From Eledone cirrhosa (taxonomy: Eukaryota): DNA of 64,000 nucleotides. The translations under genes were made by a program, and so were the position numbers. Location: positions 37,634,001 through 37,698,000 of the forward strand of contig OZ024750.1 of the NCBI GenBank assembly GCA_964016885.1, written 5' to 3'. Below, piece by piece: positions 3,532-20,500 of the stretch. The notes under the pieces are model-generated. The model made no database searches. It saw only the letters and a program-made list of their open reading frames with translations, and was not told the DNA's origin. Within the stretch, counting starts at the first letter, position 1. Every line of letters starts with the position of its first letter.

Positions 3532-5030
3532 ATGAGGAGGGTAAATGGTCCTGTGTGGAAAACTGATAGAGACAAATGCTATCAACAAGGTTTTTTAGAA
3601 AATGATGAGCATTGGGACCTTGTACTGACTGAAGCATTAGTGTCAGATTCTCCAAGGAAACTCCGTAACCTTTTTGTAATTATGCTGAACATGTGTCAAC
3701 TTGTCAGTCCCCTACAGCTTTGGATGAAACATCGTGAGGACATGGCTGAGGACTTAAAGCATGCAGTTCAACAGGCAAACCCAGATCTCAATATTCAGTT
3801 CTCTGAAAAAAGTTTTAACCAAGCACTGATTGAAATCGAGGATCAAGTTTTGGCCATAGGAGGCAAAAATTTGCAAGAGTCTGGCTCTGGACTGCCCAAA
3901 ACAAACCTTCAAGTTAGTGATTTAACTTCAAGAGACATAGCAAGAGAGACAAATTATGACATCACAGAGTTGGCTGCATTTGTGAATGAACATTAACCGA
4001 AACTTCTTCCAGAACAACGCTGGGCATATTATGAAATCATTTCGTCAGTCAGAGAAAAAAGTGGAGGAATTTTCTTTGTTGATACTCCAGGTGGCACAGG
4101 TAACATTTGTAACAACATTGCTTCTCTCCAAGGTAAGGCAGCAAAAAGAATTGCAGTTGCTGTAGCATCTCCCAGGAGGACAAACAGTTCATTCTGCTTT
4201 TAAATTACCGCTAAATTTGGTGACAAACGACAGGCCAGTTTGTAACAAGCAAAGGTTCAGGTTCAGCAGAAGTGTTGCGTCAATGCCACCTGATCATTTG
4301 AGATGAATGCGCCATGTCACATAGAGGTGCAATGGAAGATCTTGATAAGACCTTACAAGACATAAGAGGCAACAATAAATCTATGGGAGGAGTTACATTA
4401 GTTTTATCAAGAGACTTCAGACAGACATTACCAGTCATTCCGAGAGGAACAAGAGCTGATGAAATAAAAGCATGTATTAAGTCTTCGCAGCTATCGTATA
4501 AAGTACAGAAATTCTCCTTCAATACTAACATGCGATACTTATTATATGGGGACCAATGTGCAGAACAGTTTTCAACCCGACTCTTTCAATTAGAAAATGG
4601 GGCACTACCAATTGATGAGAATGGTGATATCAGTTTGTCACATATTGTTATCATGGTGGATTTCCCAGCTGAATTGAAGAACAGGGTATTTCCAGACTTA
4701 AGTAATCATTATAATTCACATAAATGGTTGTGTGAAAGGGCAATGCTTGCTCCAAAAATGAGACAGTAGCAAGAACTAACCATGAATTAATGAATAAGAT
4801 TCCAACAGTAATTAAGGAGTACAAATCAGTTGATTCAGTCATTGATGAAAATCAAGCTGTCCACTAACCAACAGAGTTCCTTAATTCTCATCAGCCAACT
4901 TTTTCTGAAGGTAGGAGTCCCAATAATGCTTCTATGAAATTTAGATCCTCCTAAATTATGCAATGGGACAAGGTTGATTGTGAAGACATTATCACCTAAT
5001 GTGATAGAAGCTACTATGGTTGATGGCAAG
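3532..5030 (+). pseudogene. Helitron RepHel, PIF1-like helicase region, disrupted
   Basis: GFLENDEHW..LTEA...SPRKLRNLF, Walker A remnant DTPGGTG at 4081, LII*DECAMSH, GGVTLVLSRDFRQTLPVIP, LCERAMLAPK and LKVGVPIMLL*NLDPPKLCNGTRLIV. It has multiple stops and frameshifts, and the C-terminal helicase motifs are absent. Confidence 0.92.
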
Positions 5031-5261
5031 GAACTATCATAACATCATCATCTAGATGAACATTCAATCACTTACCTGCACACACGCAATCACGTTGGTT
5101 TATGAATGAATGAAGAATTTACTTAATCATTTTTGTAATTCAGGAAAGTTTATTTAAATGTGTGCAGTAAATAAATATATACATATACACCAGGAACCAA
5201 ACTCTCACCGTCATTGATTCCGTTTTTCCTACTATTCCTATCTCTCACTATTATGAGCAAA

Positions 5262-6650
5262 TGGGGGGGGGGGGGGGTCCCAGCCCTGGTGGACAGAATA
5301 GAAGCGTTTCCCCGGAGGATGGTGAGGGAGATGCACTGGAAAAGCCATTCCAGCTTGCGAGGCTCACACCTGCGGCTGGCCAACTCTGTGCCGAGTCGGA
5401 AGGTGGCCCTAGGGCCAAAGACACCAGAAGTCTCCACTGCTACGGGTAGCCAACTCCGTGGTGAGTAGAGAGGTCGTCCTAGGGCCAAAGACACCAGAAG
5501 TCTCCACTGCTACGGGTAGCCAACTCCGTGGTGAGTAGAGAGGTCGTCCTAGGGCCAAAGACACCAGAAGTCTCCACTGCTACGGGTAGCCAACTCCATG
5601 GTGAGTAGAGAGGTCGTCCTAGGGCCAAAGACACCAGAAGTCTCCACTGCTACGGGTAGCCAACTCCGTGGTGAGTAGAGAGGTCGTCCTAGGGCCAAAG
5701 ACACCAGAAGTCTCCACTGCTACGGGTAGCCAACTCCATGGTGAGTAGAGAGGTCGTCCTAGGGCCAAAGACACCAGAAGTCTCCACTGCTACGGGTAGC
5801 CAACTCCGTGGTGAGTAGAGAGGTCGTCCTAGGGCCAAAGACACCAGAAGTCTCCACTGCTACGGGTAGCCAACTCCGTGGTGAGTAGAGAGGTCGTCCT
5901 AGGGCCAAAGACACCAGAAGTCTCCACTGCTACGGGTAGCCAACTCCATGGTGAGTAGAGAGGTCGTCCTAGGGCCAAAGACACCAGAAGTCTCCACTGC
6001 TACGGGTAGCCAACTCCGTGGTGAGTAGAGAGGTCGTCCTAGGGCCAAAGACACCAGAAGTCTCCACTGCTACGGGTAGCCAACTCCGTGGTGAGTAGAG
6101 AGGTCGTCCTAGGGCCAAAGATACCAGAAGTCTCCACTGCTACGGGTAGCCAACTCCATGGTGAGTAGAGAGGTCGTCCTAGGGCCAAAGACACCAGAAG
6201 TCTCCACTGCTACGGGTAGCCAACTCCGTGGTGAGTAGAGAGGTCGTCCTAGGGCCAAAGACACCAGAAGTCTCCACTGCTACGGGTAGCCAACTCCGTG
6301 GTGAGTAGAGAGGTCGTCCTAGGGCCAAGGACACCTGAAGTCTCCACTGCTACGGGTAGCCAACTCCGTGGTGAGTAGAGAGGTCGTCCTAGGGCCAAGG
6401 ACACCAGAAGTCTCCACTGCTACGGGTAGCCAACTCCGTGGTGAGTAGGGAGGTGGTCCTAGGGCCAAGGACACCAGAAGTCTCCACTGCTACGGGTAGC
6501 CAACTCCGTGGTGAGTAGGGAGGTGGTCCTAGGGCCAAGGACACCTGAAGTCTCCACTGTTACGGGCTCGACCAGAAACCTGTCGGAGTGTGACTGATAT
6601 TTGGCGAGTTTACTCTCCTTGGCCTAAAGTGCAGCAGAGCCTGGGTTAAT
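5262..6650 (-). mobile_element. CRE-like non-LTR retrotransposon 3' fragment (restriction-like endonuclease C-terminus), expanded by an internal tandem array
   Basis: The minus strand reads PGSAAL*AKESKLAKYQSHSDRFLVEPVTVETSGVLGP on the right of the array, and PVAVETSGVFGP...EPRKLEWLFQCISLTILRGNASIL on the left. This fits the K..KY...P.AVET.G...S....RGNA signature of CRE-type elements. Confidence 0.8.
5379..6566. repeat. 70-bp tandem repeat, about 16.5 near-identical copies plus a diverged partial lead-in
   Basis: Unit AGGGCCAAAGACACCAGAAGTCTCCACTGCTACGGGTAGCCAACTCCGTGGTGAGTAGAGAGGTCGTCCT at 5411, 5481 and so on up to 6531 (partial). Confidence 0.98.
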
Positions 6651-7008: not shown

Positions 7009-7935
7009 ATAGCAGAGGTACCCAGGAATGTTTGTATGTTCTTCCAAAGTAACACTATGCAGTAAAGTTGCAACTTCAGAATTCCTTACAAACTATATGA
7101 CTAAGGAATTAATATCTATTGTTGTTATTGAAGGAGGTATTATGACATTGCTCATTCCAAAGCCTCTGGATAAACAACATTCTTGGTTTTGCCCTGTGGT
7201 ACTACAATGATGACACAATCAGGGTTTCCAACCCTTGTACCAACATAGAGTTGACCATGTGAAAAGACAGGATCTGCCAGGTTCAACCCAATGACTATCA
7301 ATGATTGTCCTTGAGATTTATTGGTCATGGCAAAACTGAGTCTGATAGGAAATTGAAGTCTTTGAAATTCAAATAGCAGAGGTATTCTGAGAATGAAACA
7401 ATTGTCACCAGCAAAATTTTCCAGACATGATTGTGACTTCTAGGGCATTGGGCAACATATTTTTAATGATGAGTCTTGTGACATAAGGCTGTCAAGGCTC
7501 ATTTTCATCCACAAACTTACGCAATGCTTCAATATCGTGGTTTGTCTCTTGAAAATCTTATTGTGTTACCTCCAGTTCTTCTGGTTCTGGCATCCCGCAG
7601 TGCTATTGATTGCCTGAACTCCATAAGACAGGTTGCAGAGAGCTTAACTGTTATTCCTGGAGGTATATTCCATATACATATTGCCATGATGTCTTTGGGT
7701 TTGGTGTAGATAGTCGTCCGACATACTGCTTTTGTATTTCTGCCAGAGCAGATGAGCTTTATCAATTCCACATGCTGTGAGTATAATAGCAAGCAACTAT
7801 CTTATCTGACTGGTTACTCAAGTGACTGCTGCTTCTTTTAAGCTCTTCTTCCAACGTCCATTGTCATGCAGGAGTCCATGCTGTTTACATGCTTCTTGGT
7901 ATGTTGTGCACACTCTTCCTCCAAATCCCCTGAGA
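7009..7935 (-). pseudogene. Second Helitron RepHel remnant, internally deleted, retaining the helicase C-terminus and a probable 3' end
   Basis: The minus strand reads TYQEACKQHGLLHDNGRWKKSLKEAA (pre-helicase region), then FEFQRLQFPIRLSFAMTNKSQGQSLIVIGLNLADPVFSHGQLYV and QGKTKNVVYPEALE* (stop at 7152-7154). A Helitron-like 3' end CCTGGGTACCTCTGCTAT lies near 7009-7026. Confidence 0.88.
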
Positions 7936-10837: not shown

Positions 10838-10893
10838 TATATATATATACACACACACATATACATTAATAACAATAATAATAATAATAATAA
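10703..10893. repeat. Compound microsatellite: A-rich, (AT)n, (AC)n, (AAT)n
   Basis: Directly visible. The (AT)n run spans about 10768-10826. Confidence 0.95.
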
Positions 10894-13800
10894 CAACACA
10901 TAAGCAGGTAATACACACATCTAGGACCACATACAACACACAAGAAGGTAATACATACATCTAGGACCACATACAACACACCAGCAGGTAATACACACAT
11001 CTAGGACCACATACAACACATAAGCAGGTAATACATACATCTAGGGCTACATACAACACACAAGCAGGTAATACACACATCTAGGACCACATACAACACA
11101 CCAGCAGGTAATACACACATCTAGGACCACATACAACACACCAGCAGGTAATACACACATCTAGGACCACATACAACACATAAGCAGGTAATACACACAT
11201 CTAGGACCACATACAACACACAAGCAGGTAATACATACATCTAGGACCACATACAATACATACATAAGCAGGTAATACATACATCTAGGACAACATATAA
11301 CACACAACCAGGTAAAACACATATCTAGGACCACATACAACACATAAGCAGGTAATACACACATCTAGGGCCACATACAACGCACCAGCAGGTAATACAC
11401 ACATCTAGGACCACATGCACCACATAAGCAGGTAATACATACATCTCTAGGACCACATACAACACACAAGCAGGTAATACATACATCTAGGACCACATAC
11501 AACACACCAGCAGGTAATACACACATCTAGGACCACATACAACACACCAGCAGGTAATACATACATCTAGGACCACATACAACACACAAGCAGGTAATAC
11601 ATACATCTAGGACCACATATAACACACCAGCAGGTAATACACACATCTAGGACCACATACAACACACCAGCAGGTAATACACACATCTAGGACCACAAAC
11701 AACACACCAGCAGGTAATAGACACATCTAGGACCACATACAACACACAAGCAGGTAATACATACATCTAGGACCACATACAATACATACATAAGCAGGTA
11801 ATACATACATCTAGGACAACATATAAAACACAACCAGGTAAAACACATATCTAGGACCACATACAACACATAAGCAGGTAATACACACATCTAGGGCCAC
11901 ATACAACGCACCAGCAGGTAATACACACATCTAGGACCACATGCACCACATAAGCAGGTAATACATACATCTCTAGGACCACATACAACACACAAGCAGG
12001 TAATACATACATCTAGGACCACATACAACACACCAGCAGGTAATACACACATCTAGGACCACATACAACACACAAACAGGTAACACACACATCTAGGACC
12101 ACATACAACACACCAGCAGGTAATACACACATCTAGGACCACATACATCACACAACCAGGTAATACACACATCTAGGAACACATACAACACACAAACAGG
12201 TAACACACACATCTAGGACCACATACAACACACAAGCAGGTAATACACAAATCTAGGACCACATACAACACACAAGCAGGTAATATACACATCTAGGACC
12301 ACATACAACACACAAGCAAGTAATACACACATCTAGGAACACATACAACACACAAACAGGTAACACACACATCTAGGACCACACAACACACAAGCAGGTA
12401 ATACATACATCTAGGACCACATATAACACACCAGCAGGTAATACACACATCTAGGACCACATACAACACACCAGCAGGTAATACACACAGCTGGGACCAT
12501 ATACAACACACCAGCAGGTAATACACACATCTAGGACCACAAACAACACACCAGCAGGTAATACACACATCTAGGACCACATACAACACACCAGCAGGTA
12601 ATACATACATCTAGGACCACATACAACACACCAGCAGGTAATACACACATCTTGGACCACATACAACACATAAGCAGGTAATACATGCATCTAGGACCAC
12701 ATACAACACACAAGCAGGTAATACACACATCTAGGACCACATACATCACACAACCAGGTAATACACACATCTAGGACCACATACAACACAAGCAGGTAAT
12801 ATACGCATCTAGGACCACATACAACACACAAGCAGGTAATACACACACATCTAGGACCACATACAACACATAAGCAGGTAATACACACATCTTGGACCAC
12901 ATACAACACATAAGCAGGTAATACATACATCTAGGACCACATACATCACACAACCAGGTAATACACACATCTAGGAACACATACAACACACAAACAGGTA
13001 ACACACACATCTAGGACCACATACAACACACAACACACAACACACAAGCAGGTAATACACACATCTAGGACCACATACAACACATAAGCAGGTAATACAT
13101 ACATCTAGGGCTACATACAACACACAAGCAGGTAATACACACATCTAGGACCACATACAACACACCAGCAGGTAATACACACATCTAGGACCACATACAA
13201 CACACCAGCAGGTAATACACACATCTAGGACCACATACAACACATAAGCAGGTAATACACACATCTAGGACCACATACAACACACAAGCAGGTAATACAT
13301 ACATCTAGGACCACATACAATACATACATAAACAGGTAATACATACATCTAGGACAACATATAACACACAACCAGGTAAAACACATATCTAGGACCACAT
13401 ACAACACATAAGCAGGTAATACACACATCTAGGGCCACATACAACGCACCAGCAGGTAATACACACATCTAGGACCACATGCACCACATAAGCAGGTAAT
13501 ACATACATCTCTAGGACCACATACAACACACAAGCAGGTAATACATACATCTAGGACCACATACAACACACCAGCAGGTAATACACACATCTAGGACCAC
13601 ATACAACACACCAGCAGGTAATACATACATCTAGGACCACATACAACACACAAGCAGGTAATACATACATCTAGGACCACATATAACACACCAGCAGGTA
13701 ATACACACATCTAGGACCACATACAACACACCAGCAGGTAATACACACATCTAGGTCCACAAACAACACACCAGCAGGTAATAGACACATCTAGGACCAC

Positions 13801-14969
13801 ATACAACACACAAGCAGGTAATACATACATCTAGGACCACATACAATACATACATAAGCAGGTAATACATACATCTAGGACAACATATAAAACACAACCA
13901 GGTAAAACACATATCTAGGACCACATACAACACATAAGCAGGTAATACACACATCTAGGGCCACATACAACGCACCAGCAGGTAATACACACATCTAGGA
14001 CCACATGCACCACATAAGCAGGTAATACATAAATCTCTAGGACCACATACAACACACAAGCAGGTAATACATACATCTAGGACCACATACAACACACCAG
14101 CAGGTAATACACACATCTAGGACCACATACAACACACAAACAGGTAACACACACATCTAGGACCACATACATCACACAACCAGGTAATACACACATCTAG
14201 GAACACATACAACACACAAACAGGTAACACACACATCTAGGACCACATACAACACACAAGCAGGTAATACACAAATCTAGGACCACATACAACACACAAG
14301 CAGGTAATATACACATCTAGGACCACATACAACACACAAGCAAGTAATACACACATCTAGGAACACATACAACACACAAACAGGTAACACACACATCTAG
14401 GACCACACAACACACAAGCAGGTAATACATACATCTAGGACCACAAACAACACACCAGCAGGTAATACACACATCTAGGACCACATACAACACACCAGCA
14501 GGTAATACATACATCTAGGACCACATACAACACACCAGCAGGTAATACACACATCTTGGACCACATACAACACATAAGCAGGTAATACATGCATCTAGGA
14601 CCACATACAACACACAAGCAGGTAATACACACATCTAGGACCACATACATCACACAACCAGGTAATACACACATCTAGGACCACATACAACACAAGCAGG
14701 TAATATACGCATCTAGGACCACATACAACACACAAGCAGGTAATACACACACATCTAGGACCACATACAACACATAAGCAGGTAATACACACATCTTGGA
14801 CCACATACAACACATAAGCAGGTAATACATACATCTAGGACCACATACATCACACAACCAGGTAATACACACATCTAGGAACACATACAACACACAAACA
14901 GGTAACACATACATCTAGGACCACACACAACACACAAGCAGGTAATACGCCCATCTAGGACCACATACA
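10893..14969. repeat. 40-bp minisatellite array A, about 100 copies
   Basis: Unit CTAGGACCACATACAACACACAAGCAGGTAATACACACAT with small indel variants. It accounts for all the C/V/Y-rich minus-strand ORFs in this interval. Confidence 0.98.
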
Positions 14970-15714: not shown

Positions 15715-16265
15715 ATGGAGTTCCACTGAGGTTCAAGTACCTCGGGGTCGTGTTCATGAGTGGTGGAATGCAGGAGGCTGAATTAAGTGCAAGAATTGCA
15801 AAAGCTGATGCAGTAATGCGCCAGTCTCAGCATTCAGCAATCAGCAGAAGGAGGTAGGTGTAAAAGCCAAACTCGCTGACTTCCTGGTATTCCTGCCAAC
15901 CCTTACCTAGGATCATGAATCTTGGGTAATGACCGAAAGAATACGATTGTAAATACAAGCGGCCGAAATGGGGTTCCTCTGAAGGGTCTTTGGAGTAACG
16001 TTATTCGATAAAGTGCATAACTCGGAGATCAAAGAGTCACTCCAGGTGGAGCCGCTACTTCTCCGGATTGAGAGATCACAGTTCCGATACTATGGGCATG
16101 TGGTTAGAATTGCTGGACAGATTTTACAGGCAAAACCAGCCAGCAAGAGACCTAGAGGTAGACCTTGAGTAAGATAGTTGAATTACATCCATGAGCTTCG
16201 CTGGTCACGCTTTGGGATCCTGCTGCATCAGTTGGAGATGTTTGCTTCTGACAGACTCGCTGGAA
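15715..16265 (+). pseudogene. RTE-clade LINE (Expander/Rex3-like) 3' fragment
   Basis: FKYLGVVFMSGG..EAELSARIAKADAVMR, then PTLT*DHESWVMTERIRL*IQAAEMGFL*RVFGVTLFDKVHNSEIKESLQVEPLLLRIERSQFRYYGHVVR and KRPRGRP. Confidence 0.9.
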
Positions 16266-16398
16266 GGAGTCAATTTACTTTTCAATTTACATATATTTAT
16301 ATGCATACATATTTGAGTATAATACTAATACTCACACTACATATGCCAGCAGAAAACTACCCAAAGGGCTATTCTTCTGGTAGTATACATAACGACCG

Positions 16399-16766
16399 CA
16401 GTTGCAAGGTACCCCTGCATCCACGGTCCCGGTTATTCGCGGAATTTTCCTTAGAACCTAACTAATAATTGTTCGTGGAAACCACCACATATTCGCGGAA
16501 TCGTAAATATTTTCAGTGATATTTTAATGGCTTATTTCGTGGCAATATATATTTTTTAACGCTAAACTATTAATAACAATATACCGTATTCGGCGACCTA
16601 TTGGATGCCCCTTCGTATAAGATGCTCCCTCTTTTTTATTATATTTTACATTATATTTTGACATTTATAGGCATTTTTTATGGACGATGTCCAATATACT
16701 CGGTTTTCAACTCTTCGCGGGTGCTCTAGGAACGTAAACCCTCGCGATAACCGGCGGACAACTCTA
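16399..16766. mobile_element. Tigger/pogo-like MITE remnant
   Basis: Left CCGGTTATTCGCGG is an inverted match to right CGCGATAACCGG. The right end GGAACGTAAACCCTCGCGATAACCGGCGGACAACTCTA resembles Tigger-MITE termini ending at TA. A second pogo-like terminus, TACCGTATT...TATAAGATGC, lies inside at about 16582-16625. Confidence 0.55.
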
Positions 16767-16985
16767 TATGCAAATATGCATTTACAAATACACAGGTATG
16801 AACCAGTTCATACATGTGCTTAATATATCTATATTAAGAAATTTATTACATACATTTATTTGCACAAAGAAACGCCTTAATAAAATGGCTTTATTCTTTC
16901 TACGCAAAGAAAGACGATTGCAAGCTGTTTGAGAAAGGATGCATGGATCAGGCAGGAACATAGAGAAGTCAGGCAGGAACATAGA

Positions 16986-17157
16986 GAAGAAATAATTGTT
17001 TTTACTTTTGGTACAATGCCAGCAATTATTCCAGTGTATTACTGGTACTTTATTTTATCGACTCCGTAAGGATGAAAGTTAACCTCGGTGGGATTTGAAC
17101 TCAGACCATAAAGGGCCATAACTCTGTGCTGCAAAGCATGGCGTCCACCCTCTAACG
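16986..17157 (-). mobile_element. SINE copy of the same family as 262-525
   Basis: GAAGAAATAATTGTTTTTACTTTTGGTACAATGCCAGCAATT...TTTTATCGACTCCGTAAGGATGAAAG...GGATTTGAACTCAGACC. It is preceded by a 21-bp tandem duplication, TCAGGCAGGAACATAGAGAAG x2 (16948-16989). Confidence 0.8.
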
Positions 17158-17197
17158 AGAAAGAGAAAGATGACGACAACATCAGAGACACGAGGGA

Positions 17198-17510
17198 ATG
17201 AATGAAGAACAGAGGTATATGGTTTTAGAGCAAGCTAGACTAAGACAACAGGAGGGAAGAGAAAATATACTTCAAGATAAATGTTAAGAATATCTGGAGA
17301 AACAAAGACTCAGACATAAAGAAAGAAGAAATAATTTGGTTCCAGAAGAACACGCATTACATTGCCAGCGTGGCCAGCTTAGGCAACAGGAAAGGAGAGA
17401 CCACATACATAGGAATGAATGAGCACATTATCTTGAGCAGCAGGGAGATGAACATAGACTTAGAAAAGAAATCATGAATGCTGAAGAACTACATAGTGAG
17501 CGACGTATGA
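17198..17510 (+). pseudogene. Decayed coding stretch with 23-aa periodic R/E/Q-rich repeats (STPR-like, as at the N-terminus of many Helitron RepHel proteins)
   Basis: One frame from ATG 17198 reads MNEEQRYMVLEQARLRQQEGREN / ILQDKC*EYLEKQRLRHKERRNN / LVPEEHALHCQRGQLRQQERRDH / IHRNE*AHYLEQQGDEHRLRKEI / MNAEELHSERRM. The period is exactly 23 aa, with two in-frame stops. Confidence 0.65.
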
Positions 17511-20500
17511 CTAACCTGTACACTGTATGTGATGTACCATGAAGCTATGGCTAACCTGTACACTGTATGTGATGTACCATGAAGCTATGGCTAACCTGTA
17601 CACTGTATGTGATGTACCATGAAGCTATGACTAACCTGTACACTGTATGTGATGTACCATGAAGCTATGACTAACCTGTACACTGTATGTGATGTACCAT
17701 GAAGCTATGGCTAACCTGTACACTGTATGTGATGTACCATGAAGCTATGACTAACCTGTAAACTGTATGTGATGTACCATGAAGCTATGACTAACCTGTA
17801 CACTGTATGTGATGTACCATGAAGCTATGACTAACCTGTACACTGTATGTGATGTACCATGAAGCTATGGCTAAGCTGTACACTGTATGTGATGTACCAT
17901 GAAGCTATGGCTAACCTGTACACTGTATGTGATGTACCATGAAGCTATGACTAACCTGTACACTGTATGTGATGTACCATGAAGCTATGACTAACCTGTA
18001 CACTGTATGTGATGTACCATGAAGCTATGACTAACCTGTACACTGTATGTGATGTACCATGAAGCTATGGCTAACCTGTACACTGTATGTGATGTACCAA
18101 GAAGCTATGACTAACCTGTACACTGTATGTGATGTACCATGAAGCTATGACTAACCTGTACACTGTATGTGATGTACCATGAAGCTATGACTAACCTGTA
18201 CACTGTATGTGATGTACTATGAAGCTATGACTAACCTGTACACTGTATGTGATGTACCATGAAGCTATAGCTAACTTGTACACTGTATGTGATGTACCAT
18301 GAAGCTAAGGCTAACCTGTACACTGTATGTGATGTACCATGAAGCTATGGCTAACCTGTACACTGTATGTGATGTACCATGAAGCTATGACTAACATGTA
18401 CACTGTATGTGATGTACCATGAAGCTATGACTAACCTGTACACTGTATGTGATGTACTATGAAGCTATGACTAACCTGTACACTGTATGTGATGTACCAT
18501 GAAGCTATGACTAACCTGTACACTGTATGTGATGTACCATGAAGCTATGACTAACCTGTACACTGTATGTGATGTACCATGAAGCTATGACTAACCTGTA
18601 CACTGTATGTGATGTACCATGAAGCTATGGCTAACCTGTACACTGTATGTGATGTACCATGAAGCTATGACTAACCTGTACACTGTATGTGATGTACCAA
18701 GAAGCTATGACTAACCTGTACACTGTATGTGATGTACCATGAAGCTATGACTAACCTGTACACTGTATGTGATGTACCATGAAGCTATGACTAACCTGTA
18801 CACTGTATGTGATGTACTATGAAGCTATGACTAACCTGTACACTGTATGTGATGTACCATGAAGCTATGACTAACCTGTACACTGTATGTGATGTACCAT
18901 GAAGCTATAGCTAACTTGTACACTGTATGTGATGTACCATGAAGCTATGGCTAACCTGTACACTGTATGTGATGTACCATGAAGCTATGACTAACCTGTA
19001 CACTGTATGTGATGTACCATGAAGCTATGGCTAACCTGTACACTGTATGTGATGTACCATGAAGCTATGGCTAACCTGTACACTGTATGTGATGTACCAT
19101 GAAGCTATGACTAATATGTACACTGTATGTGATGTACCATGAAGCTATGACTAACCTGTACACTATATGTGATGTACCATGAAGCTATGGCTAACCTGTA
19201 CACTGTATGTGATGTACCATGAAGCTATGAATAACCTGTACACTGTATCTGATGTAGCATGAAGCTATAGCTACGCTGTACACTGTATGTGATCTACCAT
19301 GAAGCTATGACTAACCTGTACACTGTATGTGATGTACCATGAAGCTATGACTAACCTGTACACTGTATGTGATGTACCATGAAGCTATGGCTAACCTGTA
19401 CACTGTATGTGATGTACCATGAAGCTATGACTAACCTGTACACTGTATGTGATGTACGTGAAGCTATGGCTAACCTGTACACTGTATGTGATGTACCATG
19501 AAGCTATGGCTAACCTGTACACTGTATGTGATCTACCATGAAGCTATGGCTAACCTGTACACTGTATGTGATGTACCATGAAGCTATGGCTAGCCTGTAC
19601 ACTGTATGTGATGTACCATGAAGATATGACTAACTTGTACACTGTATGTGATGTACCATGAAGCTATGGCTAACCTGTACACTGTATGTGATGTACCATG
19701 AAGCTATGACTAACCTGTACACTGTATATGATGTACCATGAAGCTATGACTAACCTGTACACTGTATGTGATGTACCATGAAGCTATGGCTAACATGTAC
19801 ACTGTATGTGATGTACCATGAAGCTATCACTAACCTGTACACTGTATGTGATGTACCATGAAGCTATGGCTAACCTGCACACTGTATGTGATGTACCATG
19901 AAGCTATGACTAACCTGTACACTGTATGTGATGTACCATGAAGCTATGGCTAACCGGTACACTGTATGTGATGTACCATGAAGCTATGGCTAACCTGTAC
20001 ACTGTATGTGATGTACCATGAAGCTATGACTAACCTGTACACTGTATGTGATGTACCATGAAGCTATGACTAACCTGTACACTGTATGTGCTGTACCATG
20101 AAGCTATGGCTAACCTGTACACTGTATGTGATGTACCATGAAGCTATGACTAACCTGTACACTGTATGTGATGTACCATGAAGCTATGACTAACCTGTAC
20201 ACTGTATGTGATGTACCATGAAGCTATGAATAACCTGTACACTGTATCTGATGTAGCATGAAGCTATAGCTACCCTGTACACTGTATGTGATCTACCATG
20301 AAGCTATGACTAACCTGTACACTGTATGTGATGTACCATGAAGCTATGACTAACCTGTACACTGTATGTGATGTACCATGAAGCTATGGCTAACCTGTAC
20401 ACTGTATGTGATGTACCATGAAGCTATGACTAACCTGTACACTGTATGTGATGTACGTGAAGCTATGGCTAACCTGTACACTGTATGTGATGTACCATGA

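Follow-up and report, generated by a model that had tools for sequence, protein, structure and literature searches.

Organization of the locus

The window analyzed here is a 64,000-nucleotide stretch of the Eledone cirrhosa genome (contig OZ024750.1, positions 37,634,001 to 37,698,000 of the forward strand). Short coordinates are window positions, and longer ones are given on the same contig, denoted C10. Sequence was covered without a break over C10:37,574,001-38,540,000 (966 kb, window included) in a genome of 3.0 Gb. The sole N gap in these 966 kb lies at 37,594,872, and 37.60-38.54 Mb is free of N. Relatives of the element were collected by a genome search with 17150-17505 as the query, which gave 55 matches; the sister set comprises the best 20 of these 55 loci, the window itself among them.

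The leftmost surviving piece of the element is a Helitron 5′ UTR remnant on the + strand (16374-16409), where similarity to copies L078 and L079 begins at about 16374-16383. It is followed by a high-copy MITE-like insertion with decayed inverted ends and a TA site (16410-16766, bounds approximate), which is shared with L002 and L003. These two are the only matches of 16383-16942 by blastn, the other copies lack the insertion, and contig depth is very high over its stretch 16423-16742. The RepHel start codon and first R/E-rich codons occupy 16885-16996 (+), with one stop and a 21-bp local duplication at 16948-16989. The ORF is then interrupted by a 161-bp SINE-like insertion (16997-17157), which is missing from the aligned sister copies and has very high read and contig depth. 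This SINE-like element is found in the repeat region of at least three family copies (the window, L018, and L020), each time directly after a GAAGA(A/G)ATAAT stretch that resembles the SINE’s own end, which suggests insertion at short homology.

The decayed RepHel N-terminus continues at 17158-17505 (+), with four 23-residue units from 17198, and corresponds to about aa 45-165 of P0006, the RepHel of an intact relative. It ends at a putative breakpoint (17504-17509), placed by comparison with L079 and L002 and by the array phase, where the N-terminus and a reversed array share a 2-bp TA overlap (17506-17507). The remainder of the window (17506-64000) is a 40-bp satellite on the - strand, antisense to RepHel, which runs on with no gap to C10:38,445,664. 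Beyond it lie a reversed RepHel piece that includes the Rep/HUH domain and is interrupted by 226 bp of inserted sequence (C10:38,445,665-38,447,362, - strand, aa about 816 to 306), a small block of 62 monomers in sense orientation (C10:38,447,363-38,449,845, + strand), and a sense RepHel piece of aa ~831-999 (C10:38,449,846-38,450,341, + strand), where the element breaks off. Neither Helitron terminus (5′ TC, 3′ hairpin/CTAG) was found at this locus: the 77 kb leftward hold no 5′-terminal match, and neither the helicase domain nor the 3′ end was found in the 90 kb past C10:38,450,341.

The N-terminal frame and its 23-residue repeats

A sequence-only reading of this DNA had described a + frame at 17198-17542 that has two internal stops within its repeats and ends in ...SERR-MTNLYTVCDVP*, and this frame is as described. 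The same reading counted four exact 23-residue repeats. The spacing is indeed exact at 23 residues; however, pairs of units are identical at only 3-8 of 23 positions. The period is non-random, with lags 46 and 23 ranking at the top, and the lag-23 score is reached by 0 of 2000 shuffles at that lag and 0 of 300 at any lag. A 23-residue tandem period is also present in L002 and P0006, with 0 of 2000 shuffles each, the same as in the window. The R/E-rich stretch before the SINE-like insertion was suspected to belong to the frame, and it is part of the same ORF: array-free copies lack 16997-17157, and the L002 ORF spans both parts. Starting at the ATG equivalent of 16885, that ORF crosses the repeats and extends to a Cys-rich region, interrupted by a single stop.

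The proposed relationship to STPR repeats does not hold up in a HMMER search, as PF21107 matches none of six proteins (P0001-P0006: the window protein, four sister copies, and the intact relative). L093, a Helitron ORF of another family in this genome, served as the positive control and scores 165 bits. The window is also absent from the PF21107 matches of the genome, among the matches listed (150 of 176). An hhalign comparison of five family copies with seven genomic STPR sequences, both shallow profiles, gives a weak match, with a probability of 13% and an E value of 0.002, and puts the repeats in register over 52 columns. The STPR domain is reported almost solely in HLE1 elements (PMC11417382, in the part available). 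The repeat of this family shares with STPR the 23-residue period, the R/E-rich composition, and the N-terminal position in RepHel, but lacks a PF21107 score even in P0006. It is best described as STPR-like in period and position and not as a demonstrated STPR member.

The positive control is itself of note. L093 2175-7313 (C2:315.526-315.531 Mb) holds an uninterrupted 1712-aa RepHel ORF of that other family. Its N-terminal STPR array consists of about 12 units of 69 bp that are nearly identical (97% matches), and the element is a candidate young autonomous Helitron.

Family identity

The attribution of the frame to the N-terminus of a Helitron RepHel is borne out, in a decayed copy of the canonical type (HLE1). 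P0006 carries Helitron_like_N and REP matches and is 53% identical to the L002 ORF; a protein homology search confined to the “longer” length class gave one match among 555 candidates. Residues 306-830 of P0006 match the reversed piece on the far side of the array, including the region of the HUH motif. A PIF1 helicase lies downstream of Rep in the family (P0006, L078, L080, L082, and L086), and the studied copy stops at aa 999, without this helicase.

The ends of the family are of a recognizable kind. At the 5′ end, TC is present in four of the five distinct copies bearing the end motif and is preceded by A in three of these four. At the 3′ end, a palindrome, judged by eye to form a hairpin, is combined with CTAG in three of the four copies shown and with TTAG in the fourth, and is followed by T in all four. 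A TC 5′ end and a 3′ end with a palindrome and CTRR are features of HLE1 (PMC11417382, in the part available). With Rep/HUH, the PIF1 helicase, and both end types found at the family level, the sequence places the family among the canonical Helitrons (HLE1).

The 794-kb array

The array (37,651,506-38,445,664) measures 794,159 bp, or about 19,850 monomers of 40 bp, and makes up 1.4% of its contig. Parsing of the array yielded 19,741 monomers, and the length is 40 bp in 19,576 of these. No N and no non-satellite run of at least 45 bp occurs in the array. A lone reversed patch of 32 bp (C10:37,838,574-37,838,605; L069 ~570-605) lies between short monomer palindromes and looks like a local template switch. 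The monomer folds as DNA at only -1.8 kcal/mol, a value obtained without a shuffle control, and strong secondary structure was rejected as the driver of amplification on this account.

The satellite is present at one locus only in the assembly. An exact 25-base pattern across the tandem join occurs 9047 times forward and 35 times in reverse in the whole assembly, with 0 for a reversed control; this locus alone gives equal counts (9047 + 35), and all 9082 matches therefore lie here. Many single monomers, 9-15 kb or more apart, are found at C25:26.47-27.20 Mb and C18:25.01-25.11 Mb. They belong to a tandemly duplicated segment that bears a Helitron fragment of the studied family.

Monomers differ by 3.6% from their own consensus, whereas the divergence of the flanking Helitron arms from the sister-copy majority is 10.5% (18 copies) and 7.6% (14 copies). 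The present array sequence is therefore younger or more homogenized than the dead element. When informative five-monomer words are compared among 40-kb bins, it is mainly neighbors that have them in common, and sharing falls with distance. No regular higher-order repeat was found in the array; the lags are weak and shift, with lengths from tens to hundreds of monomers. The most frequent variant in the small block occurs in 0 of 19,576 monomers of the big block, and 0 of 46 informative four-monomer words are common to both sides of the break. The 4A,5G variant, to which 14% of the big-block monomers belong, recurs in one edge monomer of the small block, a weak hint that the array was already polymorphic when it was broken.

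The satellite is very abundant in sequencing runs X1-X3. Summed contig depth on the monomer, which is not a copy number, is ~6 x 10^5 in X1, ~5 x 10^5 in X2, and 54 in X4, which carries another organism label. The X4 value is within the range of the neighboring Helitron arm, and thus suggests that the array is absent from the organism of X4. Run X6 is a reduced-representation RAD-seq run and is not informative on array size.

Origin of the monomer and the junction at 17505/17506

The array starts at 17506 without a degenerate zone, and its first monomer equals the consensus, as the earlier description stated. The proposal that the monomer is a piece of Helitron sequence is likewise correct: it is RepHel coding DNA, from the opposite strand, and its coding counterpart is aa ~817-830 of P0006 (KLHATSHTVYRLAI). 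However, this source (L078 5645-5684) is well downstream in RepHel, at ~650 codons and ~1.83 kb from the junction. A single monomer is found at ten sites in nine array-free loci, always between the same two flanks and with 3-5 mismatches in 40 to the array consensus; three of these loci (L081, L083, and L084) look like duplicates of one another.

The further suggestion that the satellite was amplified in frame at 17506 fails, since array-free copies continue normally there and the monomer has its own site elsewhere. Among the 19 sister loci (from the best 20 of 55), 17 carry the normal continuation motif at the equivalent of 17506, leading into the Cys-rich region, and none carries a monomer at that position. 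The sole monomer match in this set is in L011, on the opposite strand, ~620 bp downstream of the junction equivalent. This comparison with array-free copies had been fixed beforehand as the decisive check, and it came out against amplification at 17506. Because sister loci continue with normal sequence and none with a monomer, the junction 17505/17506 is interpreted as a rearrangement breakpoint. The notion of a shared frame also loses its meaning. A 40-bp unit is not a multiple of three, so the + frames cycle through the array; the reading ends 11 codons into the monomer, the longest stop-free run on the + strand of the array is 51 codons, and the true frame is on the other strand. The read-through peptide (MTNLYTVCDVP*) is an antisense, chance product with no function implied.

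In a different copy, L010, which belongs to a subfamily with a 27-bp deletion, an insertion ~30 bp past the 17506 equivalent runs into a ~19-copy, 72-bp tandem array.

The far end of the array and a probable inversion

It had been suggested that the element might resume at the far end of the array. RepHel sequence does resume there, but the first resumed piece is reversed. Mapped on P0006, the order is aa 1-165 in + orientation (arm A), the reversed array, aa about 816-306 in - orientation (arm B), 62 monomers in + orientation, and aa 831-999 in + orientation (arm C). The three arms are complementary, non-overlapping parts of one RepHel by tblastn with P0006, and blastn with L078 and L086 agrees. 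At its outer end, each array block is joined, with base precision, to the flank that borders a single monomer in array-free copies. Reversal of 37,651,506-38,447,362 (~796 kb) restores an ordinary element with the array at the monomer’s own place.

What is missing at the breakpoints amounts to ~430 bp of RepHel, which correspond to the Cys-rich region (aa ~163-305), together with 19 bp (modulo 40) of the array. In the copies that are measurable and have both marker motifs, the corresponding stretch is 431-443 bp long in seven of ten and 341-388 bp in three of ten; the other nine of the 19 sister loci are not measurable and were left out. Both array blocks carry a T where ten of ten array-free monomers have C, and this private T therefore points to one origin for both blocks. 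Substitutions do not tie arms A and B to one insertion, as the sister copies are star-like, and the 27-bp deletion common to L002, L003, L010, and this locus marks arm A only.

These observations are most probably explained by a single canonical Helitron copy, now dead, whose RepHel supplied the 40-bp piece that grew into a satellite, and in which a later inversion likely flipped most of the array against the N-terminus with the 23-residue repeats. Amplification would have taken place at the monomer’s own site within RepHel, not at 17506. The first 40-bp duplication could have arisen by replication slippage, given that the unit ends overlap by 1 bp only, and the array would then have grown after the element’s death through unequal exchange and the duplication of local blocks. 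The N-terminus and the interior of the array would each have suffered a double-strand break, and the ends would have been rejoined by end joining, with a 2-bp TA overlap on the left and none on the right, to produce the ~796-kb inversion with a loss of ~430 bp. Each block presumably kept turning over separately afterward. The right edge opens with a monomer bearing six changes, whereas the left edge monomer is perfect. That the left edge is so clean could be due to a deletion that later removed sequence from the N-terminus into the array, to loss at the break, or to turnover that reached the edge.

Alternative explanations

A different history would bring together two copies of the family, the satellite having arisen in one (arm B, array, and arm C) and the N-terminus of the other having been placed beside it by deletion or translocation. 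Both outer ends of the element are truncated, no substitution links A to B, and the genome contains at least 55 matches to the family, all of which would be compatible with two copies. On the other hand, A, B, and C complement each other on P0006 without overlap, and A is oriented like C, where a single inversion predicts it to be. Even with two copies, the opposite orientations of B and C on either side of the array call for an inversion. This history is considered very unlikely. The in-frame origin, with a monomer that follows the repeats in the parent gene and is amplified at 17506, draws on the 11 codons over which the frame enters the first monomer with no degenerate zone. It is practically discounted by the normal sequence of 17 of the 19 sister loci (best 20 of 55) at that point, where none has a monomer, and by the coding of the monomer on the opposite strand at aa ~817-830.

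The same anatomy could also have been reached by rolling-circle over-replication driven by RepHel instead of host recombination, and tandemization of Helitron parts by rolling circle has been proposed (PMC12628747). However, the model, in the part of that source available, multiplies truncated elements that bear the 5′ end, and the unit here is a 40-bp internal piece without a terminus. Neither end is left in the decayed host copy, the array occupies one locus, and its variants are layered in local blocks; this route is accordingly given a very small probability. An equally small one is given to an assembly error in the left junction or in the array orientation. The left junction, the only one compared, was tested with short-read contigs of the runs and one RAD-seq run, and no bridging record was found among the contigs compared. 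The window’s own bases at two positions, 17451 and 17472, do not occur in the X1 and X2 contigs, one X1 record fits a switch into the sister copy L012 at a common 35-mer, and a perfect contig record near the junction in one comparison stands against zero cover there in another. Contigs are unreliable near this junction. The absence of a read-level bridge and of the window’s own bases would fit an error. Against it, 37.60-38.54 Mb has no N gap, a false join would need to have selected the very piece of this Helitron gene that fits, the satellite is very abundant in X1-X3, and the 62-copy block has variants of its own. A single Helitron copy, expanded at the monomer’s own site and later inverted, remains the preferred explanation.

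Relation to known satellites and inversions

Satellites from transposon coding DNA are already known, and the mechanism is not new. The closest precedent is CficCl-61-40 of Chenopodium, whose starting monomer is a ~40-bp fragment of the tnp2 domain of the CACTA element Jozin; it is pan-chromosomal and is proposed to arise repeatedly from active CACTA elements (PMC7320549, in the part available). As there, the monomer is a ~40-bp fragment of a transposase gene and the array is still attached to the parent element. Unlike CficCl-61-40 as described in that part, the donor is a Helitron RepHel, the array is confined to one locus, both original flanks are kept, and the array is split by an inversion. 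The resemblance is in origin, not in spread.

Helitrons have supplied the monomers of other large arrays, namely, the Drosophila DINE-TR1 and 154TR and oyster Cg170 satellites, which derive from central repeats of Helitrons or Helentrons (PMC12628747; PMC9659126; both in the parts available). According to these accounts, those monomers are internal tandem repeats of non-autonomous elements and were spread by transposition, whereas the present one is a single-copy coding segment without spread. Similarity to transposon coding sequence is likewise shared with satellites from retroelement ORFs, such as chicken HinfI (CR1 ORF2), Phodopus PROsat (L1 ORF2), and a gag-derived satellite of rye (PMC9659126, in the part available). 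For these, the available account reports sequence similarity, whereas at the present locus both sides of the birth site can be placed to the exact base. A literature search, with most subscription journals and supplements outside its scope, found no case of a satellite derived from the coding part of RepHel.

Inversion breakpoints that lie in satellite arrays are also found in the deer mouse, where satellite-mediated inversions are attributed to ectopic recombination between two arrays (10.1101/2024.05.29.596518, in the part available). In contrast to those cases as described there, one break here is in the array and the other is in unique Helitron sequence. The 2-bp overlap and the break in unique sequence therefore point to end joining.

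Satellite origins are usually inferred from loose similarity. The present locus brings together a birth site, both native flanks, a single-copy ancestral state, layered turnover, and a probable later inversion. It offers a test case for the transposition-free growth of 40 bp of coding DNA to 0.8 Mb, and for the question of whether an array can break its own chromosome as it grows. The array is insertion-free in a SINE-rich genome, has layered variant blocks, occupies a single locus, and is not amplified in X4. It could conceivably be a centromere, or the seed of one, that is young and specific to this chromosome, and belong to a group of Helitron-derived satellites that provide the chromosomes of this lineage with private centromeric DNA; this is unlikely. 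If it were so, the inversion would record breakage at that centromere, which is an equally unlikely part of the same reading.

Other elements in the window

Several other repeats accompany the element. Decayed helicase-region remnants of other Helitron families lie at 3532-5045 (+) and at 7158-7385 and 7701-7934 (-), with 28-52% identity to P0006. They were considered as the missing 3′ half of the studied copy and rejected, given this low protein identity and no blastn match to L078 or L086. The stretches 15720-16260 (+) and about 1330-2200 read like decayed LINE reverse-transcriptase C-termini.

A 70-bp GC-rich tandem array occupies 5379-6566 (17 copies, 97% matches). A second 40-bp tandem array with a different unit is found at 10893-14969, where ~101 copies form two blocks. 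Five copies of that unit, together with the following 300 bp, are also present in L081 (6893-7389), and a short repeat within a different dispersed element is the likely starting point of this array.
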